Shown: positions 24,402 to 64,000 of the stretch, one piece after another
Layout: every line of letters begins with the position of its first letter
Position numbering within the stretch: the stretch's first letter is position 1
Assembly: GCA_017499595.2 (NCBI GenBank)
Contig: CM039006.1
Coordinates: 3,038,001 to 3,102,000, forward strand
Source: Psilocybe cubensis
Lineage: Eukaryota
DNA: 64,000 bases
Reading direction: 5' to 3'
Translations under genes and position numbers: made by a program
Notes under the pieces: generated by a model
What the model was told of the DNA's origin: nothing
What the model saw: only the letters and a program-made list of their open reading frames with translations
Databases searched by the model: none

Positions 24402-27400
24402 ATGCCTTCGGCACCCTTTTCCTCTGTCCAACACAACGCACACCCAGGGCTCACATCGACATCGACATCCACAACACCATCCATGTCGTCTTCCGGCCTA
24501 CCACCGTCCAACGCGCTCTTCCCGGCTCTCTACCTGTACCCTTTGAACGACACATGGGCACCCAAACACATTGCGCTGACGAGTATGCACACGAAAATTG
24601 GACGGCAGACGAGCAGCAAAACAGCGCCAGGCGAGCGGAATGGGTTTTTTGACAGCAAGGTGCTGAGCCGACAACACGCAGAAGTGTGGGAGGAGGGTGG
24701 AAAGGTGAGTATATGCGCGTATATGCATATATGCATCACATTCCGGCCGGATTCTGATTAATGTTTAGATATATATTAAAGATGTGAAGAGTTCGAATGG
24801 GACGTTTATCAATGGGGAGAGGCTCAGCAGCGAAGGACACGAATCGGAGCCATTCGAGCTCAAAAGCGACGACATCGTCGTATGTCCTTTCACCCCTCTT
24901 TTTTCGTACACTCACATTTTCTAGGAATTCGGTATCGACATCGTGGGCGAAGACAATAAGACGATCATCCATCACAAAGTCGCCGCGCGTGTTGTATGTG
25001 TGTTCACAGAACAGGATGCCCAGGTCGCTGCACGCGCCGAGCAGCATCAAGCTATGCAAGCACAACAGCAGGCCGCGCAGCATCAGCAGCAGCATCCACA
25101 GCAACATGGGCAGCACGGCCACCCGCAAGGTGCCGGAGGGTTCATGGGCGCTGGCCAGCAAGGCCTCGGGGGGCTAGGAGGGCAGGCGCATGGACTGGGC
25201 GGTCCAATGGGCCTTGGAGCAATGGGTGGCCAGCCACAGGGCGTGATGGGAGGACTGGGGGTGAATGGTGGACAGACGGGCCCGGGCGGTGGACAAGGTG
25301 CGCAGAATTTCCCCTTTGGACAGGGGCAGCCGGGTGCCAGGAGGCCACAGCTTGCGCAAGGCCTCGGTTCGATGGGTGGTATAGGCCTCAGGCCGCCAGG
25401 TAAAACCGGCCTGAGCTTCGACGTGATTCTGAGTCGCCTGCAAGGCGAGGTGCAGAAGAGTCGCGAGACAGGGGCAGAGTTGGGCAGTTTGACGAGCGCG
25501 ATGGGCGAAATTGGGGATGTGCTTGGGGGTGTCGGCGTGGTGAGCTTTGTATATCATTTGTAGGTCCAAATACTCAGTAATTATTGGTGCAGCCTGCAAA
25601 CCTTCCACCGTTCCCGGCACATCTACCCCCTGTGCGTGCGCCTCCACCGGAAGCGCAGCCATCCATACCTTTGCCGCCACCTCCTGCTGCTGTTTCTGCA
25701 CCTGCACCTGCACCTGCAGCCACGTCACCCAGCGCACCCAATGCCGCACCCGCATCAGCAGAGGCCGCATCGACATCGACATCGACATCAACATCCGCTA
25801 CCGCATCAACGTCGACATCAACCGACCAAACATCCACCTCATCTCCGCCTTCGACATCTGCGCAGCCTGCACCGTCCGGTCTATCCGCGACCCTCATCGC
25901 AGAACTACAGGCCCAGATCAGGGAGACGCAGAGCAGCCTCGCTGCCCACCATGACCGCGTCCGCCAACTCGAGGGCGCTCTCGAGGCGCAGGAAGGTTTA
26001 CGGCGTGAGGTTGTGGTGTTGCGAGAGCTTGTGATGCGTGGCGCGAGTTCATCAGGGACGTCCGGCGCGGGTTCGGGTGATTCAAGAGAGGTAAGGTTGG
26101 AGGAAGGGTCTCACGAAGAGGCAATGGGTGAAAGGCATCGTACGTGTGATGACGAGGACGAAGGCGGGGAGGGCCATGAAGATGACGACGAGGAAGAAGA
26201 AGATGACGACGACGATGCGCGTAGTGTGTCGACGATTATTCCGCACGAACTCGAGAGTGTCGAGGAGGAGGATGAGGAGGCCGTTGCGCGTGCTGAGCGT
26301 GGTGAAGATGGCGATGGCGATCCCGACCATGAGGCGCGTGATGCGCAGCATGGAGTTGAGGATACAGACCATTCTGTGTCTGAAGCTGTCGACCCTTCGA
26401 CTCTTGATCAGGAGCACGAGCACGAACAAAGGCATGAACATGGGTCGGAGGATGAGGCAGAGGCAGAGAAGCGGAAGCAGGAGGATCTCAAGGTCGGCAG
26501 GCCCCGTACACCGGAACCCTCGCTCCTGGGTATGGGTGAGCGCAGGGCATCACCGCTCGTCAGGCGACGCCCGCGCGACGCTGATGATGAAGCTGGGCAG
26601 CATCCTGAAGTCGACGAGGACGAGGAGGATGGCGAAGAAGATCATTTCAGACCTTCGTTACCGTCCTCTGTATCCGATGCCGACGACGACTCCGAAACGG
26701 AGGCGAATCCCGCCTCTAAATCCTCTGCAGTGTCCACCGAAACGAGCACGAGCGCAGAGGTGCTGGCGCAAGTCAGCAAGCTTTCGGCGCAGGTCTCCTC
26801 GGTCGTCGCATTGAGCGAGGCGCTGCATAGGCAGCACGCCGAGGCGCAGGGTACGATTCGAGCACTGGAGAAAAAGGTTGAAGGGTTGGAGGAGATGCTG
26901 AGAGCTGCTAGCGCTGCGAAGGAGGAAGAGGCTGCCGCTGTGGTGAAGGAGGAACCTGTGGATGACGTGCAGGTTAAAGCCGAGCCTGTAACGGAGGAAC
27001 CCTCTTCCACAGCTATCACGATAGCAGCGACTGTCGAATCGGCCCTCGCGGAGAAAATGGCTCTCTGGAAGAAGGCTGTCGAGGGTCAATGGAGCTCTGT
27101 CCGCGATGAGTGGCGTGACGAACGTGCGCGGCTTGAGAGGGCGAGAGAGGAGTGGGAGGCTAGGGTGCGGCTGGTTGAGTTTGGTCTTGAGAGAGTGCGT
27201 GATGCCGAACGCGAACGGGAAGGGGAGGTGACGAAGACTAGGGTGAATGGTGGTGGGAACGGTAATGCGAGGGGGGGTCTAGCGACGCCGCCGAGTCCAC
27301 GGTCGCAGAGCTCAGATTCAGGGAGGTATAGGAGACGGAAGAAGCGTGCGGCGCTCACTAACGCTGGTGCTACTTCAACATCCGCCGTGGAAGGCAGCTC

Positions 27401-28145
27401 TGGTGCGAGTGGTAGTGAGGACGAAGAAGACCGTGATTCGGGCGACGAAAAGGCACCGTCTGCGCAGAAGCTTGAAGGACGAAAGGGGGTCGAACTTGTA
27501 GATGACCCTACGCGAATGCTTGCTACGCCAGAACCGTCTGTCGTGTTCAAGCTCTCGGAGAGCGCTGTGTCGTCTCTCGACGGTGACCGGGATCAGGACG
27601 AATCTCATCTATCTGGGAAGACACGGACACACCCGCTTGCAGACTCGAGCGATGTGGACGCGGATGTGCTCTCACGTAGTTTCGACGAAGATTCTGTTGC
27701 TGGGCAATACGAACAATCAAGTGGAGAAGGGCTAGAAGGAGAAGGAATAGAAGGCGCTAGGGCGAGTCCATTTTCTTCCTCATCGACGTATGCGCGCGAC
27801 GCGTTGCTGATCCTTTTCTGGGTTTTTGTTTCTTGTGTGTTGGGTGTATTGGGTGTATTTGTGGGTCTTGCTATCTCTGTTTATTCATGGCTTGTGTCGG
27901 GCGTCGTTTGGATCTCTTCATCGTCGGTCGCGCGCTGGCTGTCGACTGTCGATCTTGATTCCTTGGCGGCTGCGCTTCCTGATACTCGGGTGTATGCTTG
28001 GGCTACACAGACGTTGCACCACCTGAACAAGGGCAAGGGCAAGGATAGCGCGGGAAACCCGAATATCAATGTCCAAACTGCGGTGGGCGTAGTGCTGCTC
28101 AGTGTTGCGGCTGCCGCTGTGTTTTGGAAGATCAAGCCCGAGTAG
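24402..28145 (+). CDS. FHA-domain, coiled-coil, C-terminally membrane-anchored STRIPAK subunit (Far9/Far10/Vps64, SLMAP, PRO45/HAM-4-like), about 1193 aa
   Basis: Exons 24402-24704, 24769-24879, 24925-25539 and 25593-28145 join in frame. FHA motifs [54 protein letters not shown]; coiled coils; hydrophobic tail [19 protein letters not shown]. Confidence 0.88.
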
Positions 28146-53289: not shown

Positions 53290-54026
53290 GCCACCGCGGA
53301 GCGTGGCATGACGAGTCTTTACGATTCAGCGTCACGCTTTGTAATAATATAATATATATATAATATAATATAAATATGTCCAACTTTGACGTGGATATCG
53401 GTGCAATGGACGAAGTGATATTCAGACTCCAAGGCATAGTTAGCGACAAGATGCTACCACCAATGGCAAAGCCTGCTTTGTACGTCCACTCCATTGAGGT
53501 GAATTAATTACAAATGAGGACTGTTACAGCCGCGACAGAACGGTCAAGCAACAACCATATTTACGTACCGCCATTGCTATCACGGGACTCGGAGACATTG
53601 TGTTCAATAAGGTGATGGAAAAGCTAGAAGAAGTTTTCCTCCGTTTTGCAAACAATTTTCCCGCGGACAGCGTCAGCGGCTATGACCCAGTTCTTCACAA
53701 AGACACGGGTTTCAATGTTTTCCATGCGCATAGCCAATATTTCACGAAGGTATCCGCATATCAAGACAAATCTGACAACATAGGTTTTCATCCCCTGGTC
53801 AACCCTGATAACGTGTTGGCGTCCATGGTAGGGGACAGTTTCATCCACGCAATCGATAACAAGGTACAGTTTCTTCGTCGGGAGATACTTCCTGACGGAA
53901 CAGCCAGGTATGTTTAGAAAATACCAACAACACATCACAACCAAACTAATATCATGTTGCAACAGATATTATTCTTATAATCCTGCCTCCATACGAATTG
54001 GAGACATTGTCGAGATCAGTGTTTAG
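53290..54026 (+). pseudogene. Multi-exon gene of unknown function, 3'-truncated by the retroelement array
   Basis: Exons DEVIFRLQGIVSDKMLPP, AITGLGDIVFNKVMEKL..FLRREILPDGTAR|YYSYNPASIRIGDIVEISV. The frame stops at GTT TAG exactly where the element sequence begins (54021). Confidence 0.55.
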
Positions 54027-54030
54027 GGGG

Positions 54031-54065
54031 GGAGCGAGCACCGAGCGAAGCGAGGTGCGAGCGAC
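54031..54065 (+). other. Hairpin with three tandem G.A pairs and a GCGAAGC cap (also at 58444, 59148 and 63551)
   Basis: G-GA-GC-GA-GCACC-GA-GC-GAA-GC-GA-GGTGC-GA-GC-GA-C is symmetric if GA:GA sheared pairs are allowed. Confidence 0.7.
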
Positions 54066-54095
54066 TAGTTTAAACTGGGAGTTAAAATGGAAAGA

Positions 54096-54160
54096 AGCCA
54101 GAGGGCTGTTGGGGGATCCCAACAACCAGCCCTTTCGTCTTTATAGACTCTTCAGTGGCT
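54096..54160 (-). ncRNA. Type I hammerhead ribozyme
   Basis: Minus strand reads AGCCA CUGAAGA GUCU-AUAA-AGAC GAAA GGGCUG..CAGCCC UC^ UGGCU. The catalytic core and stems I-III are complete, with predicted cleavage between 54101 and 54100. Confidence 0.92.
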
Positions 54161-54695
54161 ATTCTTAGAAGGAATGTTCTAGACATCCGATGACAGCGCG
54201 TGAAGTGATGCTGCGCAGCTGTCATGTATCTTACCGACTATCACAAATCTGTCAATGTTTATTGTCAAGTTAGACAGGTCTCTGATGAACAGAGTGTCAC
54301 GGGTCAATGTGGCACATGGTAACCTGTCAAAAGTGGATCCAACACTTTTGTTCTTTGACATCGTGGGTTATTGACTGTGATGTGAATCACATGGATATAG
54401 AGTACTCTGGTTACGTGGCTCCGAGTAACCGCGACATGGGAATATTCACATGTCTAGAGTATAAATAGCTTACCTGGGTCCTTACCTAACAATCAATTGA
54501 TTGATTGTTGTGAATCTTAATTGGACAGTTCATGATCCGGTCCATCAAAAATGTTTCCACGGTACTAAGGAACTTTTCCCGAGGTACTAAGTAACTTTTC
54601 CCATGTACTAAATTAGATCCGGCCCTTCACAATCACATGCCGTTCGGAAGTTCACACGCCTACCTTACTTCCTACTAAGGTTAGACTTAGTTAGC

Positions 54696-54756
54696 TTAGG
54701 GTTGGGGTTAGGTTAGGGCTTAGGGTTTAGGGTTTAGGGTTTAGGTTTAGGTTTAG
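54696..54756 (+). repeat. Telomere-like tract (TTAGGG/TTTAGGG/TTTAGG variants) in the element 3' UTR
   Basis: TTAGGGTTGGGGTTAGGTTAGGGCTTAGGGTTTAGGGTTTAGGGTTTAGGTTTAGGTTTAG. Confidence 0.9.
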
Positions 54757-54868
54757 CTATTTAATCCAATGTGTTGCTTGTAAGTAGATGTTTGTTACTT
54801 TGTAGCAAGGAATACTTACGGTTAGGGTTTTTTTCTAATGCTTTACGCCTTAAGCGCTAGTATTCTTT

Positions 54869-57800
54869 TCATCGGTTGTAAGATTTGGATATTCTGCCGA
54901 ATTCTGGATGTTCCCTCTCTTGTGAGATTGAACGTCTATGAAGTATTATCTCGTTATCACTTTCGATACTTATCTGCTCAGCAGCTTCAACTAGAGCAGA
55001 ATGATAAGTTTCATTAACGTTTTGAGTTTCGGGAACAACACCACCTTTTTCGGCAATGTCTTCATCCAGTTTACGAAAGACTGTTTTCTTCCACACATTT
55101 GCAAGGTCGAAAAGATTAGTATTGCGTTTTCGCGATACTATCCAACGACTTCCGAGTAGTCCTATCTTCCTCAAATCCGGTACGAACTCAGTTTCTCCGT
55201 CCACGAGGATCTGTGTGAACAGCTCCGGGCGAACATCATCGAGGTCGTGAACGTAATTTGGATCTGGTTTGATAAGGGGTCTGGACGAGTCTGCACTATA
55301 CAGACCTTTCTCGGCATGTTCATACCATGCCGACCAGTACTTGGTAACAGTTTTTCCAAGTTCAGCAGCTGAAAACCAATTCCATACCTGATCAAACCTG
55401 GTTTTAAGTACAAGAATGGATTCGTCGTGCTCTGCGACTCGTAAAGCGAATCGCTTTTTCCAACGTTCTTGTATATTCTTCTTACACCAAGACATGACTA
55501 GGTTTTCGGGATAACCGCGCATCAAATAGAGAGCGTTAAGGTCTCTAATTGCTCCAATGTAGATTTCCTTGGTACTACATAGCACGGCTAACCTGGATAA
55601 CTCTCCAATGTAGACGCCACGTTTGACGTCCAAAGGATGATGTGATACCCATGGAACTCGTTCTCGGTTGTTTCCTGTCTTGACAAATGGCTTCCAATGA
55701 AGTTTTCCAGACTCCTTGAATATGAAAGCATCGAGAAATTGACATCCCGACAAGGAAACAGCCCATTCGATAACACAACCATCGAACTTTATTGTTTCTT
55801 TAATAAGATTAAGTGCAAGTGCTTCGGACTCGGCGTAAACAATTGCGAAACAATCGTCGATGTACCTTCCATAGAAGGCCACATTTGGGTGGTCTAAGAT
55901 TTTTGACTTTATTTCAAAATGGGCTCCAAAGAGGTTAGCAAGGTCCGGAGAATCCGCGACGCCCATTGCGAGGCCATTTTTTTGTCTAAAATATCTAGAC
56001 CCATGTTGTGTTATCAATTGCGTATTGCCAATCTCGATAGCACGTTTAAAGATGCCCAATTTAACCAAGTTATTCTCTAACGAATTTGGATTAATATGGG
56101 CTAATGCAGTGTTTTCTTCCGAAGCGTTGAGTAACCATTCCTCGTACATACTACAAACGATTTCGATGCACAAGTCCAACGGAATATTGGGATAGAAAGC
56201 GACTACATCCCCGGTGACAAAATACCATTGTCGTTTGGGGTCTATACGCAATTGGCTTAATCTCGTAAAGAGATCCTTCGTTCCGTGAATGATTGAAGGA
56301 GTCGATTTAATAATCGGCTTAAGCTCTTTTGATACAAACTTGGCTGCAGGATTAAAAACTACAGAGTGACACGGAATTATGGGCCTAAATCCAGTAGGTT
56401 TCTTGTGGATTTTAGGTATACCATGAAATTGAGGATACTTGAACGATGATCCGTCTTCCGGTACATTCGATAGAAAGAATCGAGACAACCCAAGTTCAAA
56501 TAGAAACAGATGTTCATCTTCGACGGTACGTGCGAGAGTTTGCATCTGAATCATTTTGCTCTTCATAACTTCTTGCGCAACTTCGAATTCTAACTCTTCG
56601 TAGTTGCGTTCATCTTCAAGAAGATTGAGCTCATTCCTTAATATCCAGTCGCGTTCAGACACCGCGAGGCCAAGATTCTTATCTGTCATCGTAATAACAT
56701 AGTTGTTATCGATAAGAAACTTTTGGATCTTGTCCCTTTTAGGAGAGAACGCGTGCTTTCGCATCTCTTTAAGGGCTTCTTCCGGGATACTTGCGATCGT
56801 TTTAATAACGTACCGACGTCCCATTGAAAGGCCAAGTTCCATAAATTGCGGTAACATTGGAGGTTTCTCTTTCTTTTTAGAGCTTACTCCATAGTCTGGA
56901 TCGAAAGGTTTATTCATGCCTTCTTTAAACAAAAAATAGATACGCCATCTTATTCTTCGTTGAAAATCATTCCATGCTTGCATGATCAGACTTTTAGAAG
57001 GCAGTGTAAAAAACATATAATTGAGTCCAAGAGATAAATCATTTGCTACATCAACAGGGACCGAAACACCAGGACTACAGTGTACACTAGATCTATACTG
57101 GCCAGCCAATAAGAATGAAATCGGGGTATTGAGGTGTACAAAAGAAACTGCGTCTGTTTTAGTCATGGTGAGTATATCGTCAGGAATAGAGTTGGGGAAG
57201 GCGGGTCTCACCGACGTAAATGATGCTACAGTAGACCGCGCGTCTAGGCTCTTGCCTTTCCCTTTCCCTTTGGATCGTTGTTCTTGACGGGAGCTCTCCC
57301 CTTCCCTTTCTTCTTGTTGTCGACCTTGTTGGAAGCCTTGGTTTGAGGCTTCCTCTGCGAAGGCGTCGACGACGACTTGGGTTTCGAAGGGCCAGCTTTC
57401 CTGGCCTGAGGTTGAGGAGCCTTGGACGAATTCTGGCCAGACAAAGTCTGGGTAATTAGAGTAATAATTAGTGTCCAGAATTATGGGTGAAGGGTTACGA
57501 AAACTTGCCTTCTTGCCCACAGATCCAAGGTTGAGCTTTTTGAGACGTGCATTCAAGCCCTTATCAATAAGGGATTGAATCGATGGACCTGGTTTGGTCG
57601 CATCGGCCATCTCGACATCGGCTGTTGCCGCAGTCGTCCGCTTTTTCTCAATCTTAATTGCCAAGACGCGGTGGCGCATGTTGACAATCTGTTTGATATG
57701 AGAAAAGATCGCCGGCAGTATAGTTTGCAGCGCACTGCATTCGGCTTTCTTTTGCGGAGACACTACCCACTCTGCTATACGTCGAACTCCCTTGTTGTCT

Positions 57801-58402
57801 GTAGAGAAAACAGGGAGCTTGTAGCTGGATTTGCGATCATCGTAAGTTGCCTTAACGATGAGGGCAGCAGCTTCGTAGCAAGAGTTGAGCGCGCATTTAT
57901 CATCCCAAAAAGCCAGCTCGTCCTTTTTCGCCTGAACGGCGCCGTCGTTAATTGCCTTTTGGAAGGCATCACGAGCGGAAGAGAACGTAGTGGAGACTCG
58001 AAGAGCCTCCGCTGACCCGGCATCCGCGAATTCCTTCGTAAGTTGGAACTCGGGTGCCTTCACCTTAAGGCGATTGGGCGTGTTGCCTGCGCTAACGGCA
58101 GATTCAAGGCGCTCGAGGCTAGCCTTGACTGTTTCCCTCTTATCGCACCACGATGCGAGGTTGTGGAGAAACTCCCTAAGGGCAGCACGATAGTCAAAAA
58201 AGACGCAGTCTATGACTTGGTCAACGGAGCGGCACTCAGCTATTTTTTTGATGACCACAGTGGCCAGCTCGTCGATCAGAGCGTTATGGCGGCCTGCTTC
58301 ATCGTTGACGCCGAAGACGGTGTTGTTGACGACGGCCTGGGTGAGTGCGTCCAGGGTGGGGGACATGGCACGAGAGAAAGCAGCAGAATATTGGGATGAC
58401 AT
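54869..58402 (-). CDS. ORF1-reverse transcriptase fusion, Penelope-like class, 1177 aa, no recognisable GIY-YIG endonuclease
   Basis: Motifs GIPKIHK..FRPII, TGDVVAFYPNI, QKNGLAMG..SPDLANL, YGRYIDD and FLD, plus thumb PWVSHHPLDVKRGVYIGELSRL. Confidence 0.93.
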   Translation of the reverse strand: MSSQYSAAFSRAMSPTLDALTQAVVNNTVFGVNDEAGRHNALIDELATVVIKKIAECRSVDQVIDCVFFDYRAALREFLHNLASWCDKRETVKASLERLESAVSAGNTPNRLKVKAPEFQLTKEFADAGSAEALRVSTTFSSARDAFQKAINDGAVQAKKDELAFWDDKCALNSCYEAAALIVKATYDDRKSSYKLPVFSTDNKGVRRIAEWVVSPQKKAECSALQTILPAIFSHIKQIVNMRHRVLAIKIEKKRTTAATADVEMADATKPGPSIQSLIDKGLNARLKKLNLGSVGKKASFRNPSPIILDTNYYSNYPDFVWPEFVQGSSTSGQESWPFETQVVVDAFAEEASNQGFQQGRQQEEREGESSRQEQRSKGKGKGKSLDARSTVASFTSVRPAFPNSIPDDILTMTKTDAVSFVHLNTPISFLLAGQYRSSVHCSPGVSVPVDVANDLSLGLNYMFFTLPSKSLIMQAWNDFQRRIRWRIYFLFKEGMNKPFDPDYGVSSKKKEKPPMLPQFMELGLSMGRRYVIKTIASIPEEALKEMRKHAFSPKRDKIQKFLIDNNYVITMTDKNLGLAVSERDWILRNELNLLEDERNYEELEFEVAQEVMKSKMIQMQTLARTVEDEHLFLFELGLSRFFLSNVPEDGSSFKYPQFHGIPKIHKKPTGFRPIIPCHSVVFNPAAKFVSKELKPIIKSTPSIIHGTKDLFTRLSQLRIDPKRQWYFVTGDVVAFYPNIPLDLCIEIVCSMYEEWLLNASEENTALAHINPNSLENNLVKLGIFKRAIEIGNTQLITQHGSRYFRQKNGLAMGVADSPDLANLFGAHFEIKSKILDHPNVAFYGRYIDDCFAIVYAESEALALNLIKETIKFDGCVIEWAVSLSGCQFLDAFIFKESGKLHWKPFVKTGNNRERVPWVSHHPLDVKRGVYIGELSRLAVLCSTKEIYIGAIRDLNALYLMRGYPENLVMSWCKKNIQERWKKRFALRVAEHDESILVLKTRFDQVWNWFSAAELGKTVTKYWSAWYEHAEKGLYSADSSRPLIKPDPNYVHDLDDVRPELFTQILVDGETEFVPDLRKIGLLGSRWIVSRKRNTNLFDLANVWKKTVFRKLDEDIAEKGGVVPETQNVNETYHSALVEAAEQISIESDNEIILHRRSISQEREHPEFGRISKSYNR
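57244..58402 (-). CDS. Predicted spliced ORF1 protein (365 aa; exons 58402-57509 and 57447-57244) with a Lys-rich tail
   Basis: Intron 57448-57508: AAG|GCAAGT...CTAAT...CCCAG|ACT. Splicing joins VGKK in frame to TLSGQNSSKAP...KGKGKARA*. Confidence 0.65.
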
Positions 58403-58508
58403 AGTGGCTGATGGGTGATAGCAAAGTCGTTGGGTTTAGGGGGGGAGCGAGCACCGAGCGAAGCGAGGTGCGAGCGACTAGTTTAAACTGGGAGTTAAAA
58501 TGGAAAGA

Positions 58509-58573
58509 AGCCAGAGGGCTGTTGGGGGATCCCAACAACCAGCCCTTTCGTCTTTATAGACTCTTCAGTGGCT
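58509..58573 (-). ncRNA. Type I hammerhead ribozyme
   Basis: Identical to 54096-54160. The predicted cut is 111 nt upstream of the ATG at 58402. Confidence 0.92.
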
Positions 58574-59212
58574 ATTCTTAGAAGGAATGTTCTAGACATC
58601 CGATGACAGCGCGTGAAGTGATGCTGCGCAGCTGTCATGTATCTTACCGACTATCACAAATCTGTCAATGTTTATTGTCAAGTTAGACAGGTCTCTGATG
58701 AACAGAGTGTCACGGGTCAATGTGGCACATGGTAACCTGTCAAAAGTGGATCCAACACTTTTGTTCTTTGACATCGTGGGTTATTGACTGTGATGTGAAT
58801 CACATGGATATAGAGTACTCTGGTTACGTGGCTCCGAGTAACCGCGACATGGGAATATTCACATGTCTAGAGTATAAATAGCTTACCTGGGTCCTTACCT
58901 AACAATCAATTGATTGATTGTTGTGAATCTTAATTGGACAGTTCATGATCCGGTCCATCAAAAATGTTTCCACGGTACTAAGGAACTTTTCCCGAGGTAC
59001 TAAGTAACTTTTCCCATGTACTAAATTAGATCCGGCCCTTCACAATCACATGCCGTTCGGAAGTTCACACGCCTACCTTACTTCCTACTAAGGTTAGACT
59101 TAGTTAGCTTAGGGTTGGGGTTAGGTTAGGGCTTAGGGTTTAGGGGGGGAGCGAGCACCGAGCGAAGCGAGGTGCGAGCGACTTGTTTAAACTGTGAGTT
59201 AAATGGAAAGAA

Positions 59213-59277
59213 GGCCAGAGGGCTGTTGGGGGGTACCAACAACCAGCCCTTTCGTCTTTATAGACTCTTCAGTGGCT
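59213..59277 (-). ncRNA. Type I hammerhead ribozyme (variant B)
   Basis: Same core and stem II. Changes are confined to the stem III loop and the outer part of stem I. Confidence 0.9.
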
Positions 59278-59812
59278 ATTCTTAGAAGGAATGTTCTAGA
59301 CATCCGATGACAGCGCGTGAAGTGATGCTGTGCAGCTGTCATGTATCTTACCGACTATCACAAATCTGTCAATGTTTATTGTCAAGTTAGACAGGTCTCT
59401 GATGAACAGAGTGTCACGGGTCAATGTGGCACATGGTAACCTGTCAAAAGTGGATCCAACACTTTTGTTCTTTGACATCGTGGGTTATTGACTGTGATGT
59501 GAATCACATGGATATAGATTACTCTGGTTACGTGGCTCCGAGTAACCGCGACATGGGAATATTCACATGTCAAGAGTATAAATAGCTTACCTGGGTCCTT
59601 ACCTAACAATCAATTGATTGATTGTTGTGAATCTTAATTGGACAGTTCATGATCCGGTCCATCAAAAATGTTTCCACGGTACTAAGGAACTTTTCCCGAA
59701 GTACTAAGTAACTTTTCCCATGTACTAAATTAGATCCGGCCCTTCACAATCACATGCCGTTCGGAAGTTCACACGCCTACCTTACTTCCTACTAAGGTTA
59801 GACTTAGTTAGC

Positions 59813-59866
59813 TTAGGGTTGGGGTTAGGTTAGGGCTTAGGGTTTAGGGTTTAGGTTTAGGTTTAG
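59813..59866 (+). repeat. Telomere-like tract in copy 2
   Basis: Same as 54696-54756 with one TTTAGGG fewer. Confidence 0.9.
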
Positions 59867-59978
59867 CTATTTAATCCAATGTGTTGCTTGTAAGTAGATG
59901 TTTGTTACTTTATAGCAATGAATACTTACGGTTAGGGTTTTTTTCTAATGCTTTACGCCTTAAGCGCTAGTATTCTTT

Positions 59979-62900
59979 TCATCGGTTGTAAGATTTGGAT
60001 ATTCTGCCGAATTCTGGATGTTCCCTCTCTTGTGAGATTGAACGTCTATGAAGTATTATCTCGTTATCGCTTTCGATACTTATCTGTTCAGCAGCTTCAA
60101 CTAGAGCAGAATGATAAGTTTCATTAACGTTTTGAGTTTCGGGAACAACACCACCTTTTTCGGCAATGTCTTCATCCAGTTTACGAAAAACTGTTTTCTT
60201 CCACACATTTGCAAGGTCGAAAAGATTAGTATTGCGCTTTCGCGATACTATCCAACGACTTCCGAGTAGTCCTATCTTCCTCAAATCCGGTACGAACTCA
60301 GTTTCTCCGTCCACGAGGATCTGTGTGAACAGCTCCGGGCGAACATCATCGAGGTCGTGAACGTAATTTGGATCTGGTTTGATAAGGGGTCTGGACGAGT
60401 CTACACTATACAGACCTTTCTCGGCATGTTCATACCATGCCGACCAGTACTCGGTAACAGTTTTTCCAAGTTCAGCAGCTGAAAACCAATTCCATACCTG
60501 ATCAAACCTGGTTTTAAGTACAAGAATGGATTCGTCGTGCTCTGCGATTCGTAAAGCGAATCGCTTTTCCCAACGTTCTTGTATATTCTTCTTACACCAA
60601 GACATGACTAGGTTTTCGGGATAACCGCGCATCAAATAGAGAGCGTTAAGGTCTCTAATTGCTCCAATGTAGATTTCCTTGGTACTACATAGCACGGCTA
60701 ACCTGGATAACTCTCCAATGTAAACGCCACGTTTGACGTCTAAAGGATGATGTGATACCCATGGAACTCGTTCTCGGTTGTTTCCTGTCTTGACAAAAGG
60801 CTTCCAATGAAGTTTTCCAGACTCCTTGAATATGAAAGCATCGAGAAATTGACATCCCGACGAGGAAACAGCCCATTCGATAACACAACCATCGAACTTT
60901 ATTGTTTCTTTAATTAAATTAAGTGCAAGTGCTTCGGACTCGGCGTAAACAATTGCAAAACAATCGTCGATGTACCTTCCATAGAAGGCCACATTAGGGT
61001 GGTCTAAGATTTTTGACTTTATTTCAAAATGGGCTCCAAAGAGGTTAGCAAGGTCCGGAGAATCCGCGACGCCCATTGCGAGGCCATTTTTTTGTCTAAA
61101 ATATCTAGACCCATGTTGTGTTATCAATTGCGTATTGCCAATCTCGATAGCACGTTTAAAGATGCCCAATTTAACCAAGTTATTCTCTAACGAATTTGGA
61201 TTAATATGGGCTAATGCAGTGTTTTCTTCCGAAGCATTGAGTAACCATTCCTCGTACATACTACAAACGATTTCGATGCACAAGTCCAACGGAATATTGG
61301 GATAGAAAGCAACTACATCCCCGGTGACAAAATACCATTGTCGTTTGGGGTCTATACGCAATTGGCTTAATCTCGTAAAGAGATCCTTCGTTCCGTGAAT
61401 GATTGAAGGAGTCGATTTAATAATCGGCTTAAGCTCTTTTGATACAAACTTGGCTGCAGGATTAAATACTACAGAGTGACACGGAATTATGGGCCTAAAT
61501 CCAGTAGGTTTCTTGTGGATTTTAGGTATACCATGAAATTGAGGATACTTGAACGATGATCCGTCTTCCGGTACATTCGATAGAAAGAATCGAGACAACC
61601 CAAGTTCAAATAGAAACAGATGTTCATCTTCGACGGTACGTGCAAGAGTTTGCATCTGGATCATTTTGCTCTTCATTACTTCTTGCGCAACTTCGAATTC
61701 TAACTCTTCATAGTTACGTTCATCTTCAAGAAGATTGAGCTCATTCCTTAATATCCAGTCGCGTTCAGACACCGCGAGGCCAAGATTCTTATCTGTCATC
61801 GTAATAACATAGTTGTTATCGATAAGAAACTTACGGATCTTGTCCCTTTTAGGAGAGAACGCGTGCTTTCGCATCTCCGTAAGGGCTTCTTCCGGGATAC
61901 TTGCGATCGTGCGTTGCACGTACCGACGTCCCATCGAAAGGCCAAGTTCCATGTATTGCGGTAATACTGGAGGTTTCTCTTTCTTTTTTGAGCTTACTCC
62001 GTAATCTGGATCAAAAGGTTTGTTCATGCCTTCCTTAAACAAAAAATAGATACGCCATCTTATTCTTCGTTGAAAATCATTCCATGCTTGCATGATCAGA
62101 CTTTGAGAAGGCAGAGTAAAAAACATATAATTGAGTCCGAGCGACAAATCATTTGCTATATCTACAGGGACCACCACACCAGGACTACAGTGTACACTAC
62201 TACGATACTGGCCAGCCAACAAGAATGAGATCGGCGTATGTAAGTGTACAAAAGAAACTGCGTCTGTTTTAGTCATGGTGAGTATATCGTCAGGAATAGA
62301 GTTGGGGAAGGCGGGTCTTACCGACGTAAAAGGTACTACATTAGACCGCGCGTCTAGGCTCTTGCCTTTCCCTTTCCCTTTGGATCGTTCTTGACGGGAG
62401 CTCTCCCCTTCCCTTTCTTCTTGTTGTCGACCTTGTTGGAAGCCTTGGTTTGGGGCTTCTTCTGCGAAGGCGTCGACGAGGGTTTGAATTTCGAAGGGCC
62501 AGCTTTCTTGGCCTGAGGTTGAGGAGCCTTGGACGAATTCTGGCCAGACAAAGTCTGGGTAATTAGAATAGTAATTAGTATCCAGAATTATGGGTGAAGG
62601 GTTACGAGAACTTGCCTTCTTGCCCACAGATCCAAGGTTGAGCTTCTTGAGACGTGCATTCAAGCCCTTATCAATAAGGGATTGAATCGATGGACCTGGT
62701 TTGGTCGCATCGGCCATCTCGACATCGGCTGTTGCCGCAGTCGACCGCTTTTTCTCAATCTTGATTGCCAAAGCGCGGTGGCGCAAGTTGACAATCTGTT
62801 TGATATGAGAGAAGATGGCTGGCAAAATGGTTTGCAATGCGCTGCATTCAGCCTTCTTCTGCGGTGACACTACCCAATCTGTTATTCGACGAACTCCCTT

Positions 62901-63509
62901 GTTGTCTGTAGAGAAAACGGGGAGCTTATAGCTGGATTTGCGATCATCGTAAGTTGTCTTAACGATGAGGGCAGCAGCTTCATAACAGTTATTGAGTGCG
63001 CATTTATCATCCCAAAAGGCCAGTTCGTCCTTTTTCGCCTGAATGGCGCCGTCGTTGATTGCCTTTTGGAAGACATCACGAGCGGTGGAGAACGTAGAGG
63101 AAACTCGAAGAGCTTCCGCTGACCCGGCATCCGCGAATTCCTTCGTAAGTTGGAACTCGGGAGCCTTCACCCGAAGGCGATTGGGGGTGTTGCCTGCGCT
63201 AACGGCAAGTTCAAGGCGCTCGAGGCTAGCCTTGACTGTTTCCCTCTTATCGCACCACGATGCGAGGTTGAGGAGAAACTCCCTAAGGGCAGCACGATAG
63301 TCAAAAAAGACGCAGTCTACAATCTGGTCAATGGAGCGGCACTCAGCTATTTTCTTGATGACGACAGTGGCCAACTCGTCGATGAGGGCGTTGTGGCGGC
63401 CAGCTTCGTCGTTGACGCCAAAAACTGTGTTGTTGACGACAGCCTGGGTGAGTGCGTCCAGGGTGGGGGACATGGCACGAGAGAAGGCAGCAGAGTAAGT
63501 GGAAGACAT
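59979..63509 (-). CDS. ORF1-reverse transcriptase fusion, Penelope-like class, 1176 aa
   Basis: Intact ORF with the same RT motifs (YIDD). Confidence 0.93.
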   Translation of the reverse strand: MSSTYSAAFSRAMSPTLDALTQAVVNNTVFGVNDEAGRHNALIDELATVVIKKIAECRSIDQIVDCVFFDYRAALREFLLNLASWCDKRETVKASLERLELAVSAGNTPNRLRVKAPEFQLTKEFADAGSAEALRVSSTFSTARDVFQKAINDGAIQAKKDELAFWDDKCALNNCYEAAALIVKTTYDDRKSSYKLPVFSTDNKGVRRITDWVVSPQKKAECSALQTILPAIFSHIKQIVNLRHRALAIKIEKKRSTAATADVEMADATKPGPSIQSLIDKGLNARLKKLNLGSVGKKASSRNPSPIILDTNYYSNYPDFVWPEFVQGSSTSGQESWPFEIQTLVDAFAEEAPNQGFQQGRQQEEREGESSRQERSKGKGKGKSLDARSNVVPFTSVRPAFPNSIPDDILTMTKTDAVSFVHLHTPISFLLAGQYRSSVHCSPGVVVPVDIANDLSLGLNYMFFTLPSQSLIMQAWNDFQRRIRWRIYFLFKEGMNKPFDPDYGVSSKKKEKPPVLPQYMELGLSMGRRYVQRTIASIPEEALTEMRKHAFSPKRDKIRKFLIDNNYVITMTDKNLGLAVSERDWILRNELNLLEDERNYEELEFEVAQEVMKSKMIQMQTLARTVEDEHLFLFELGLSRFFLSNVPEDGSSFKYPQFHGIPKIHKKPTGFRPIIPCHSVVFNPAAKFVSKELKPIIKSTPSIIHGTKDLFTRLSQLRIDPKRQWYFVTGDVVAFYPNIPLDLCIEIVCSMYEEWLLNASEENTALAHINPNSLENNLVKLGIFKRAIEIGNTQLITQHGSRYFRQKNGLAMGVADSPDLANLFGAHFEIKSKILDHPNVAFYGRYIDDCFAIVYAESEALALNLIKETIKFDGCVIEWAVSSSGCQFLDAFIFKESGKLHWKPFVKTGNNRERVPWVSHHPLDVKRGVYIGELSRLAVLCSTKEIYIGAIRDLNALYLMRGYPENLVMSWCKKNIQERWEKRFALRIAEHDESILVLKTRFDQVWNWFSAAELGKTVTEYWSAWYEHAEKGLYSVDSSRPLIKPDPNYVHDLDDVRPELFTQILVDGETEFVPDLRKIGLLGSRWIVSRKRNTNLFDLANVWKKTVFRKLDEDIAEKGGVVPETQNVNETYHSALVEAAEQISIESDNEIILHRRSISQEREHPEFGRISKSYNR
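62354..63509 (-). CDS. Predicted spliced ORF1 protein (364 aa; intron 62555-62615)
   Basis: The GC donor, CTAAT branch sites, CAG acceptor and 61-nt length are all conserved with copy 1. Confidence 0.65.
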
Positions 63510-63615
63510 GGTAGCTGTTGGGTAATAGCAAAGTCGTTGGGTTTAGGGGGGGAGCGAGCACCGAGCGAAGCGAGGTGCGAGCGACTTGTTTAAACTGTGA
63601 GTTAAATGGAAAGAA

Positions 63616-63680
63616 GGCCAGAGGGCTGTTGGGGGGTACCAACAACCAGCCCTTTCGTCTTTATAGACTCTTCAGTGGCT
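63616..63680 (-). ncRNA. Type I hammerhead ribozyme (variant B)
   Basis: Identical to 59213-59277. The predicted cut is 111 nt upstream of the ATG at 63509. Confidence 0.9.
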
Positions 63681-64000
63681 ATTCTTAGAAGGAATGTTCT
63701 AGACATCCGATGACAGCGCGTGAAGTGATGCTGTGCAGCTGTCATGTATCTTACCGACTATCACAAATCTGTCAATGTTTATTGTCAAGTTAGACAGGTC
63801 TCTGATGAACAGAGTGTCACGGGTCAATGTGGCACATGGTAACCTGTCAAAAGTGGATCCAACACTTTTGTTCTTTGACATCGTGGGTTATTGACTGTGA
63901 TGTGAATCACATGGATATAGATTACTCTGGTTACGTGGCTCCGAGTAACCGCGACATGGGAATATTCACATGTCAAGAGTATAAATAGCTTACCTGGGTC

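Follow-up and report, generated by a model that had tools for sequence, protein, structure and literature searches.

A candidate facultative coding intron that may switch a Coprina-type Penelope-like retroelement of Psilocybe cubensis between an ORF1-only and an ORF1-RT product

How a retroelement with a single long open reading frame (ORF) might make a structural protein separately from its enzyme is the question raised by a 64,000-nt stretch of the Psilocybe cubensis genome (assembly GCA_017499595.2, contig CM039006.1, positions 3,038,001 to 3,102,000 of the forward strand; called the window here, with all coordinates counted from its first letter). The last 10 kb of this window are filled by two adjoining minus-strand copies of a ~5.1-kb, apparently Penelope-like retroelement, which according to a repeat search and blastn are 96% identical to each other. 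The protein encoded by this element begins with an ORF1 region at its N-terminus, which a linker joins to a reverse transcriptase (RT). Inside the long ORF of each copy lies a 61-nt segment that carries the signals of a spliceosomal intron while leaving the RT frame open (Table 1). We consider it likely that this segment is a facultative spliceosomal intron, which would switch the single ORF between an ORF1 protein with a tail of its own and an ORF1-RT fusion.

The initial annotation had described the segment in both copies as having an AAG/GCAAGT donor, two CTAAT branch motifs and a CAG acceptor, and all of these are present in the sequence. In copy 1 the minus strand reads GGC AAG AAG/GCAAGT...CTAAT..CTAAT TACCCAG/ACT TTG, with the two CTAAT motifs located 20 and 8 nt from the 3′ splice site, and the donor agrees with the consensus at all positions except the GC. 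In copy 1 the RT frame runs through the segment without a stop, and the +1 frame meets a TAA in it. Translation confirmed the two readings that had been proposed for it: retention keeps the RT frame of 1177 aa open, with the intron contributing the 20 residues ASFRNPSPIILDTNYYSNYPDFVWPEF to the fusion form, and removal of the 61 nt leads into TLSGQNSSK...KGKGKARA, a Lys-rich tail of 67 aa that is closed by a stop at 57246-57244. Within the stretch encoding this tail, a hexamer repeat AAAGGG (57252-57275, minus strand) encodes Lys-Gly in the RT frame (KGKGKGK) as well as in the tail frame (KGKGK).

Table 1. Coordinates of the features of the two element copies within the window
Feature	Position	Strand	Details	Basis
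Copy 1 including both flanking direct repeats (pseudo-long terminal repeats, pseudo-LTRs)	54018..59134	-		repeat search, blastn
Copy 2	59135..64000	-	5′ flanking repeat cut by window end	repeat search, blastn
Long single ORF, copy 1	54869..58402	-	1177 aa; ORF1 domain, linker, RT; intron-retained reading	
Long single ORF, copy 2	59979..63509	-	1176 aa	
ORF1 body (exon 1)	57509..58402	-	298 aa, ends ...LGSVGKK	
Interval between upstream alternative GT donor and GC donor	57509..57520	-	12 nt; GT donor TCT/GTGGGC, giving a 73-nt intron, also 3n+1	
GC-AG intron candidate, copy 1	57448..57508	-	61 nt; AAG/GCAAGT donor, CAG acceptor	
Intron candidate, copy 2	62555..62615	-	61 nt; same signals	
Dual-coding stretch, copy 1	57244..57447	-	+1 frame: 67-aa Lys-rich tail and stop; RT frame: ORF1-RT linker	
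Tail/linker dual-coding stretch, copy 2	62354..62554	-	66 aa and stop	
Hammerhead-ribozyme-like motif, 3′ flanking repeat of copy 1	54096..54180	-	CUGAAGAG-stem II-CGAAA-long helix III	Rfam
Identical hammerhead-like motif, 5′ flanking repeat of copy 1	58509..58593	-		Rfam
CCCTAA-like (reverse-complement telomeric) repeats, 3′ end of copy 2	59100..59150	-	ccccctaaaccctaagccctaacctaaccccaaccctaag; just downstream of the hammerhead motif	

The intron-like signal in the ORF of copy 1 is not a chance match. Candidates were defined by a donor with at least eight of nine matches to AAG/GTAAGT (GC being allowed), a body free of AG, a CTNAY branch motif and a YAG acceptor. Under these criteria the 3534-nt ORF contains the 61-nt segment and no other candidate, and codon shuffling of the ORF produced no intron-like candidate in 300 versions.

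An alignment of ORF1 proteins led to 33 related metagenome contigs with ORF1 identities of 29-51%, which together with the two window copies make up the 35 sequences compared here. An intact fused ORF of ~1110-1220 aa is present in 26 of them, namely 24 metagenomic relatives and both window copies, which form 15 lineages when ORF1 identities under 70% are taken to separate them; the remaining nine are broken or cut by contig ends. All 26 intact loci contain an intron-like segment at the homologous place. When the segment was delimited by a rule without any length condition (the best donor within a span of 140 nt, followed by the nearest AG no less than 35 nt beyond it), the donor was in phase 0 in every intact locus and the length was of the form 3n+1 in 25 of the 26, and in 32 of the 35 sequences overall. 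The sole length exception among the intact loci is L002, in which an AG lies inside the branch region and use of the following AG results in 61 nt. When only acceptors yielding 3n+1 were admitted, intron lengths of 49, 52, 55, 58 and 61 nt were obtained. The distance from a CTNAY branch motif to the acceptor is 8-22 nt in 25 of the 26 loci, L002 having CTAAG at 20 nt, and the acceptor in the intact family members is YAG.

The donor follows a conserved Lys, where the RT frame reads Val-Ser, Val-Arg or Val-Asn, and takes the forms GTAAGT, GTGAGT, GTAAGA and GTTAGT, more rarely GTGCGC and GTACGC. Its first position is G in all 35 sequences and its second is T in 33, the two window copies having C instead. 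A GT donor is found in each of the 14 non-Psilocybe lineages, 11 of them with a GTRAGN type or GTTAGT and three with weaker forms (GTGAAT, GTGCGC, GTACGC). The Ser codon after the junction is AGT or AGC, and never TCN, in every V-S lineage. Further full-length proteins, judged by eye and uncounted, mostly have Val at the junction. Ala (GCN) is seen there in P. cubensis, and Ala also in gene models of P. cyanescens (GKKAS in P0157), as judged from the proteins. The initial annotation had proposed that a weak donor sets the ratio of the two products. Since GC was seen in Psilocybe only and the donors elsewhere are GT, this idea does not describe a feature of the family and would be applicable at most to Psilocybe.

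The downstream signals are conserved as well, and the proposed conservation of splice signals and of both frames in related elements, when checked, held in 15 lineages. The RT frame is open from ORF1 through intron and overlap in 26 of the 35 sequences. The tail frame stays open for 51-98 codons across the 15 lineages, and a KGKG or KGKA run stands at its end in 23 of the 26 intact loci (mostly KGKGKxxA before the stop), while L019, L025 and L028 end in other basic runs. The GTAAG donor itself makes a TAA in the +1 frame, a +1-frame stop lies inside the intron in 23 of the 26 loci, and in 11 of them (7 lineages) the acceptor itself reads TAG, so that the +1 frame is closed immediately ahead of the tail. 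Owing to these stops, the tail is hardly reachable by an upstream frameshift, whereas splicing explains it simply.

Both frames also bear the marks of selection. For eight disjoint pairs of related copies, substitutions were sorted by RT-frame codon position and compared with a uniform distribution. In the ORF1 body, positions 1, 2 and 3 received 111, 56 and 332 substitutions (p = 2e-56), and the RT region downstream showed the same order with 119, 69 and 275 (p = 3e-33). The intron, with 17, 10 and 30 (p = 0.004), evolves like coding sequence of the RT frame, which implies that it is translated when retained. In the overlap the pattern changes to 106, 45 and 45 (p = 6e-9). RT-frame position 1 in the overlap corresponds to position 3 of the tail frame, and this excess at the third position of the tail frame implies that the tail is translated and is the dominant constraint there. 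In line with this, the rates at the three positions in pooled within-lineage pairs were 0.30, 0.14 and 0.13 for the overlap as against 0.15, 0.09 and 0.36 for the ORF1 body. All indels in the eight pairs, in every region including the intron, are 3 or 6 nt long.

The window copies themselves differ little. In the intron there are four substitutions, three of which are silent in the RT frame, being at third positions, as the initial annotation had it, and the fourth of which is a non-synonymous F/S exchange. The overlap differs by eight substitutions and one 3-nt indel. The substitutions fall on RT-frame positions 1, 2 and 3 in numbers of 3, 2 and 3, which are too few to inform. The two R/K swaps reported for the tail and the 3-nt indel were found again, and P/F and S/P exchanges and one lost N occur in addition.

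From these observations the following mechanism can be proposed. If the intron is retained, it would be translated in frame and yield the ORF1-linker-RT fusion. If it is spliced out, the removal of 61 nt (3n+1) would shift translation into the +1 frame, which ends after the predictedly disordered, Lys-rich tail of 67 aa, and the product would be an ORF1-only protein of ~364 aa. The ~200 nt after the intron would then be dual-coding and specify the tail and the ORF1-RT linker in different frames. This arrangement would probably serve to supply, from one transcription unit, more of the structural or RNA-binding ORF1 than of the enzyme, comparable to gag versus gag-pol in other retroelements. The ORF1 versus ORF1-RT switch of the initial annotation is strongly supported by the signals, the 3n+1 length, the frame-switching substitutions and the indels in multiples of three, with splicing as the predicted step. 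The RNA that is reverse transcribed would be the intron-containing one, because all 35 sequences keep the intron. A sequence with ORF1 joined directly to the tail was not found among them, so that precise intron loss occurred in none of the 33 related loci and in neither window copy. This fits the earlier proposal that only the unspliced RNA is retrotransposed. Extended to the whole family, the proposal would be that selection has kept the coding, retained intron of Agaricomycete Coprina-type elements as a switch of expression. The spliced RNA would be the ORF1 messenger, which thereby gains a basic C-terminal domain from an overlapping frame, and the intron-containing RNA would serve as messenger for ORF1-RT and as the sole template of reverse transcription. 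For this wider statement we see about even chances.

Gene models deposited for related fungi agree with the spliced form. ORF1-only models of 330-400 aa that include the tail are present in at least 10 Agaricomycete species, namely P. cubensis, P. cyanescens, P. cf. subviscida, Hypholoma sublateritium, Trametes versicolor, T. sanguinea, Lenzites betulinus, Plicaturopsis crispa, Mucidula mucida, Mycena metata and M. maculata. Several of them place the junction at the same residue, for example GGKK/TSSGP in Hypholoma and VSKK/NSSGP in P. cf. subviscida. Such models are predictions that read the same splice signals and are distinct from RNA evidence. The tail-bearing entries are NCBI or UniRef gene models, except for the jgi proteins P0149 and P0158, which read through the intron and enter tail-frame sequence only further downstream. 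The models for P. cubensis are mutually inconsistent, with a 288-nt removal in two of them and the upstream GT donor in others, the NCBI models P0129 and P0141 using the GT-donor junction at 57521 (LNLGS/TLSGQ).

Several points weigh against the facultative intron or narrow what can be said about it. The sequences show the signals, their conservation and selection on both frames; splicing itself, the setting of a ratio and the role of the tail are what we infer. The GC donor of the window copies might be a decayed site, although the GT donor 12 nt upstream gives the same frame. An open alternative frame of 67 codons is unremarkable when taken alone: such runs reach 91-108 codons elsewhere in the same ORF and 70-170 codons in relatives, and the third (+2) frame is often open too in the same purine-rich stretch. 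Because equally long runs are that common, the openness of the tail frame was discarded as evidence. The pairs used for the codon-position test were drawn from six lineages only. At deep divergence, moreover, the RT-frame peptide of the overlap is somewhat conserved as well. Residue order was conserved across lineages beyond shuffles, with mean z values of 3.0 (tail frame), 2.2 (RT frame) and 1.0 (third frame), a modest margin, the tail being ahead of the RT frame in 63 of 105 lineage pairs. Finally, the junction of exon 1 to the tail was seen in none of the ORF1-length proteins from sources without intron modelling (ena, jgi, lgn), the junction-less ones being P0132, P0134, P0136, P0138, P0139, P0140, P0152, P0155, P0156 and P0160. 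This may count weakly against abundant spliced RNA, or the contigs may be mostly DNA.

The same layout might also arise from constitutive splicing, with ORF1 plus tail as the main product and RT translated from the spliced mRNA through a -1 ribosomal frameshift close to the tail's end, in the manner of retroviral gag-pol. The RT frame is indeed -1 relative to the tail frame, and the AAAGGG repeat forms slippery G_GGA_AAG heptamers of the -1 frameshift kind at the KGKGK codons, only few codons upstream of the tail stop; four other lineages have such heptamers as well. According to the legend of Fig. 1 in Craig et al. (2021; PMC8557442), ORF1 of some Penelope-like elements is separable by a frameshift with a pseudoknot. 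However, a conserved slippery heptamer with downstream structure was not found here: the heptamer is present in 5 and missing in 10 of the 15 lineages and is expected by chance from KGK codon usage, and the 96 nt downstream of it in the window fold no better than shuffled sequences (z = 0.07). Constitutive removal would also not maintain a stop-free intron with an RT-frame pattern of 17/10/30, and an RT frame open over ORF1, intron and overlap in 26 of 35 sequences argues in the same direction. We regard this explanation as improbable. Only just behind it stands the assumption that no splicing takes place at all, so that the tail is reached by +1 frameshifting on unspliced RNA or is not expressed, and the splice-like signals are a side effect of the protein sequence (K-V-S ... 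A-N-D ... Q). Donor and branch motifs do coincide with conserved RT-frame residues (KVS; AND = GCTAATGAC), and splicing of this element is a prediction from its sequence. Yet the tail frame has a codon-position signature of its own (106/45/45) and is thus translated, while the TAG acceptors before the conserved tail start (11 of 26) and the +1 stops within the intron (23 of 26) stand in the way of frameshifting. The 3n+1 length in 25 of 26 loci is not required by protein constraints alone, and the invariant G at the first donor position, the T at the second in 33 sequences and the restriction of the junction Ser to AGT and AGC point the same way.

The intron might also be real but serve something other than dosage, for instance export, a translation mark that depends on the exon junction complex, or silencing of the element by the host through spliceosome-coupled small RNAs, with the ORF1-only protein as a by-product. 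The donor in P. cubensis is non-canonical, and suboptimal introns in transposon transcripts trigger small-RNA silencing in a basidiomycete yeast, which we count in favour of such a role. A mere by-product, though, would not keep a tail frame of 51-98 codons open, with ends mostly of the KGKGK type and a third-position bias, over 15 lineages, and we give this explanation slightly less credence than the absence of splicing. It is least probable, and in our view very much so, that the signals resemble an intron by chance in a low-complexity, stop-poor linker and have no function. Alternative-frame runs of the observed length are common and the +2 frame is often open there too, but the absence of candidates from 300 shuffles, the conservation of position, phase and length class in 15 lineages and the frame-specific substitutions are at odds with this.

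As to the nature of the element, the closest database matches of its proteins are P. cubensis proteins with 98-99% identity. The translation of copy 1 contains the RT motifs DKN (ITMTDKNLG), GIPKIHKK and YIDD, of which PKIHK is a motif that we take to be typical of Penelope-like elements. DKN is named as a motif of Penelope-like elements in PMC13159263. Pfam RVT_1 matched the element protein with 26.8 bits (E = 4.9e-6), which is below the cut-off of 29.6. It was the sole Pfam match on residues 560-1177, where a GIY-YIG endonuclease domain was absent, and no family matched when the whole protein was searched. The ORF ends ~170 aa past the last conserved block of the RT region, and gag, protease and integrase domains were not found in the protein with Pfam. 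Features matching this element are given for endonuclease-deficient Penelope-like elements of the Athena and Coprina kind in passages of PMC8557442, PMC13159263 and PMC4209133. Judged by its sequence, the element is an endonuclease-lacking Penelope-like retroelement. We label it Coprina-type rather than a proven member of the Coprina clade, because the assignment is by motifs, domains and repeats and the chromosome end lies outside the window.

The initial annotation had called ORF1 a nucleic-acid-binding protein, which is not supported in that form. An AlphaFold model built from 14 sequences, with P0123 (93% identical) as the first, predicts a helical core with one beta-hairpin at residues 40-260 (predicted local distance difference test, pLDDT, ~90) and a disordered tail at residues 291-361 (pLDDT ~35). 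For ORF1, Foldseek found no similar PDB structure (E <= 0.001), no Pfam family matched, and Protein Atlas gave weak leads only (<0.85); a sequence search for solved structures gave no match. Composition and predicted disorder suggest that the basic tail might act as a nucleic-acid binder or a nuclear signal. A 135-aa protein of P. cyanescens (P0161, CVT25_006606), which consists mostly of the ORF1 C-terminus and the tail, carries the UniRef label "Histone H1", an automatic name that evidently goes back to the Lys-rich tail.

Direct repeats of ~704 bp flank each copy. The pair of copy 1 (54018-54721 and 58431-59134) is 100% identical, whereas the copies differ by 4%. The two copies abut repeat to repeat at 59134/59135, with CCCTAA-like repeats at the joint. 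They lie at the right edge of the window, in an orientation as expected for successive additions to a chromosome end lying rightward. Runs of the (CCCTAA) type were found in 19 of the 33 related loci, and no (TTAGGG)3 array is present in the window. The motif in the flanking repeats matched the Rfam family RAGATH-1-hammerhead with 29.1 bits (E = 0.013 in a search of 901 nt), a sub-threshold value in view of the gathering score of 56.3. An Rfam search of the whole window gave no match at the gathering score, and 14 related loci searched together gave no hammerhead match at E <= 1. With a regular expression, a hammerhead core (CUGAnGA...GAAA) with stem II and a long helix III was found in 15 of the 33 related loci and in both window copies. 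Across 14 sequences, stem II shows compensatory changes in two of its three pairs, and RNAalifold on a MAFFT alignment recovered stem II only. We count this hammerhead-like motif among the features that link the element to its group, its cleavage activity being putative. Several metagenome contigs, among them L016 (hammerhead at positions 12 and 4612) and L021 (19 and 4394), have very nearly the length of one unit, with a hammerhead motif at both ends, as tandem units or a circular or concatemeric assembly would produce.

Leader exons and introns in the pseudo-LTR are known from descriptions of Penelope and Chlamys elements. An ATG at ~58775, within the 5′ flanking repeat of copy 1 (58646-58775, minus strand), starts a reading of 42 aa, MSKNKSVGSTFDRLPCAT..RFVIV, which extends up to a GTAAG, and the P. 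cubensis gene models P0129, P0130 and P0141 begin with this peptide and then splice into ORF1. The reading could be a leader exon followed by an intron or an artefact of the gene predictor. In the NCBI models JR316_0013386 and JR316_0002860 (P0004, P0005), an in-frame "intron" of 288 nt is cut from GTGAGA at 57211 (56923-57211, minus strand). This cut removes 96 residues (VRPAFPNS...YFLFK), which related loci have in their RT frame, and is probably an annotation artefact. Apart from the element, the window contains, within its sole GC-rich part (58% GC), an open frame of 853 codons at 25584-28145 (plus strand). This frame, probably a host gene, matches no Pfam family and is rich in Ala, Ser, Pro and acidic residues, with a predicted coiled stretch and hydrophobic C-terminal segments.

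Among retroelements, those of the Penelope-like kind stand closest to telomerase, and the founding paper on Coprina is reportedly that of Gladyshev and Arkhipova from 2007. With the Coprina-clade elements as portrayed in passages of PMC8557442 and PMC13159263, the element analyzed here shares an RT without GIY-YIG, one ORF with an N-terminal coiled-coil region, a fungal host, flanking direct repeats, and a hammerhead together with short reverse-complement telomeric repeats at the 3′ end. In the same passages, Coprina is described as a one-ORF element (PMC13159263) and Penelope-like elements are said to keep introns through retrotransposition, with a significance that PMC8557442 calls unknown; for Coprina, these passages make no mention of an intron that acts as a switch and is followed by a dual-coding tail. 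A literature search that did not cover the founding Coprina paper, supplements and the figures of PMC8557442 yielded no description of an intron switch in Coprina or other Penelope-like elements. As the legend of Fig. 1 in Craig et al. (2021; PMC8557442) mentions conserved introns, an intron as such may already have been recorded for Coprina.

If the proposed switch is correct, it would provide a first functional reason for the keeping of introns in Penelope-like elements, and one-ORF Coprina elements would encode two proteins. An intron, a linker and a protein tail would all be encoded in the same 250 nt of a retroelement. The layout gives intron retention a testable function in a fungal telomere-associated clade, namely the dosage of ORF1 versus ORF1-RT from a single ORF. 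It would also call for a correction of the P. cubensis annotation, in which models cut a conserved stretch of 96 aa from the RT protein or use another donor.

The proposed switch resembles programmed frameshifting between gag and gag-pol in that two products with a common N-terminal part are made and an overlap of two frames sets the ratio, and differs from it in that the frame would be changed by RNA splicing and not by the ribosome. Alternative splicing likewise yields a subgenomic RNA for the structural protein, and with it an excess of this protein over the enzymes, in Drosophila copia, as stated in a passage of PMC3735527, and in the shGAG RNA of plant Ty1/Copia elements, as stated in one of Oberlin et al. 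(2017; PMC5580714). In those elements, which belong to another retroelement class, a large part of pol is removed or splicing is tied to premature termination, and these passages give no dual-coding overlap. The closest known mechanism is that of BARE1, a Copia-superfamily LTR element of barley with a facultative 104-nt intron (Chang et al., 2013; PMC3735527). As far as the consulted part of that paper goes, BARE1 shares with the element described here one ORF, a small alternative intron, a splice-induced frameshift, a spliced RNA that encodes the structural protein only and an unspliced RNA as the only one that is replicated. BARE1 has a capsid, a protease and an integrase, and its shifted frame stops after three residues, whereas the Penelope-like element lacks an endonuclease and has an intron of 49-61 nt under coding selection, followed by a conserved basic tail of 51-98 aa that overlaps the linker. 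Splicing of BARE1 was shown experimentally, while here it is predicted. The element would thus work like BARE1 while standing outside the BARE1 family, and barley BARE1 would have reached the same solution independently.

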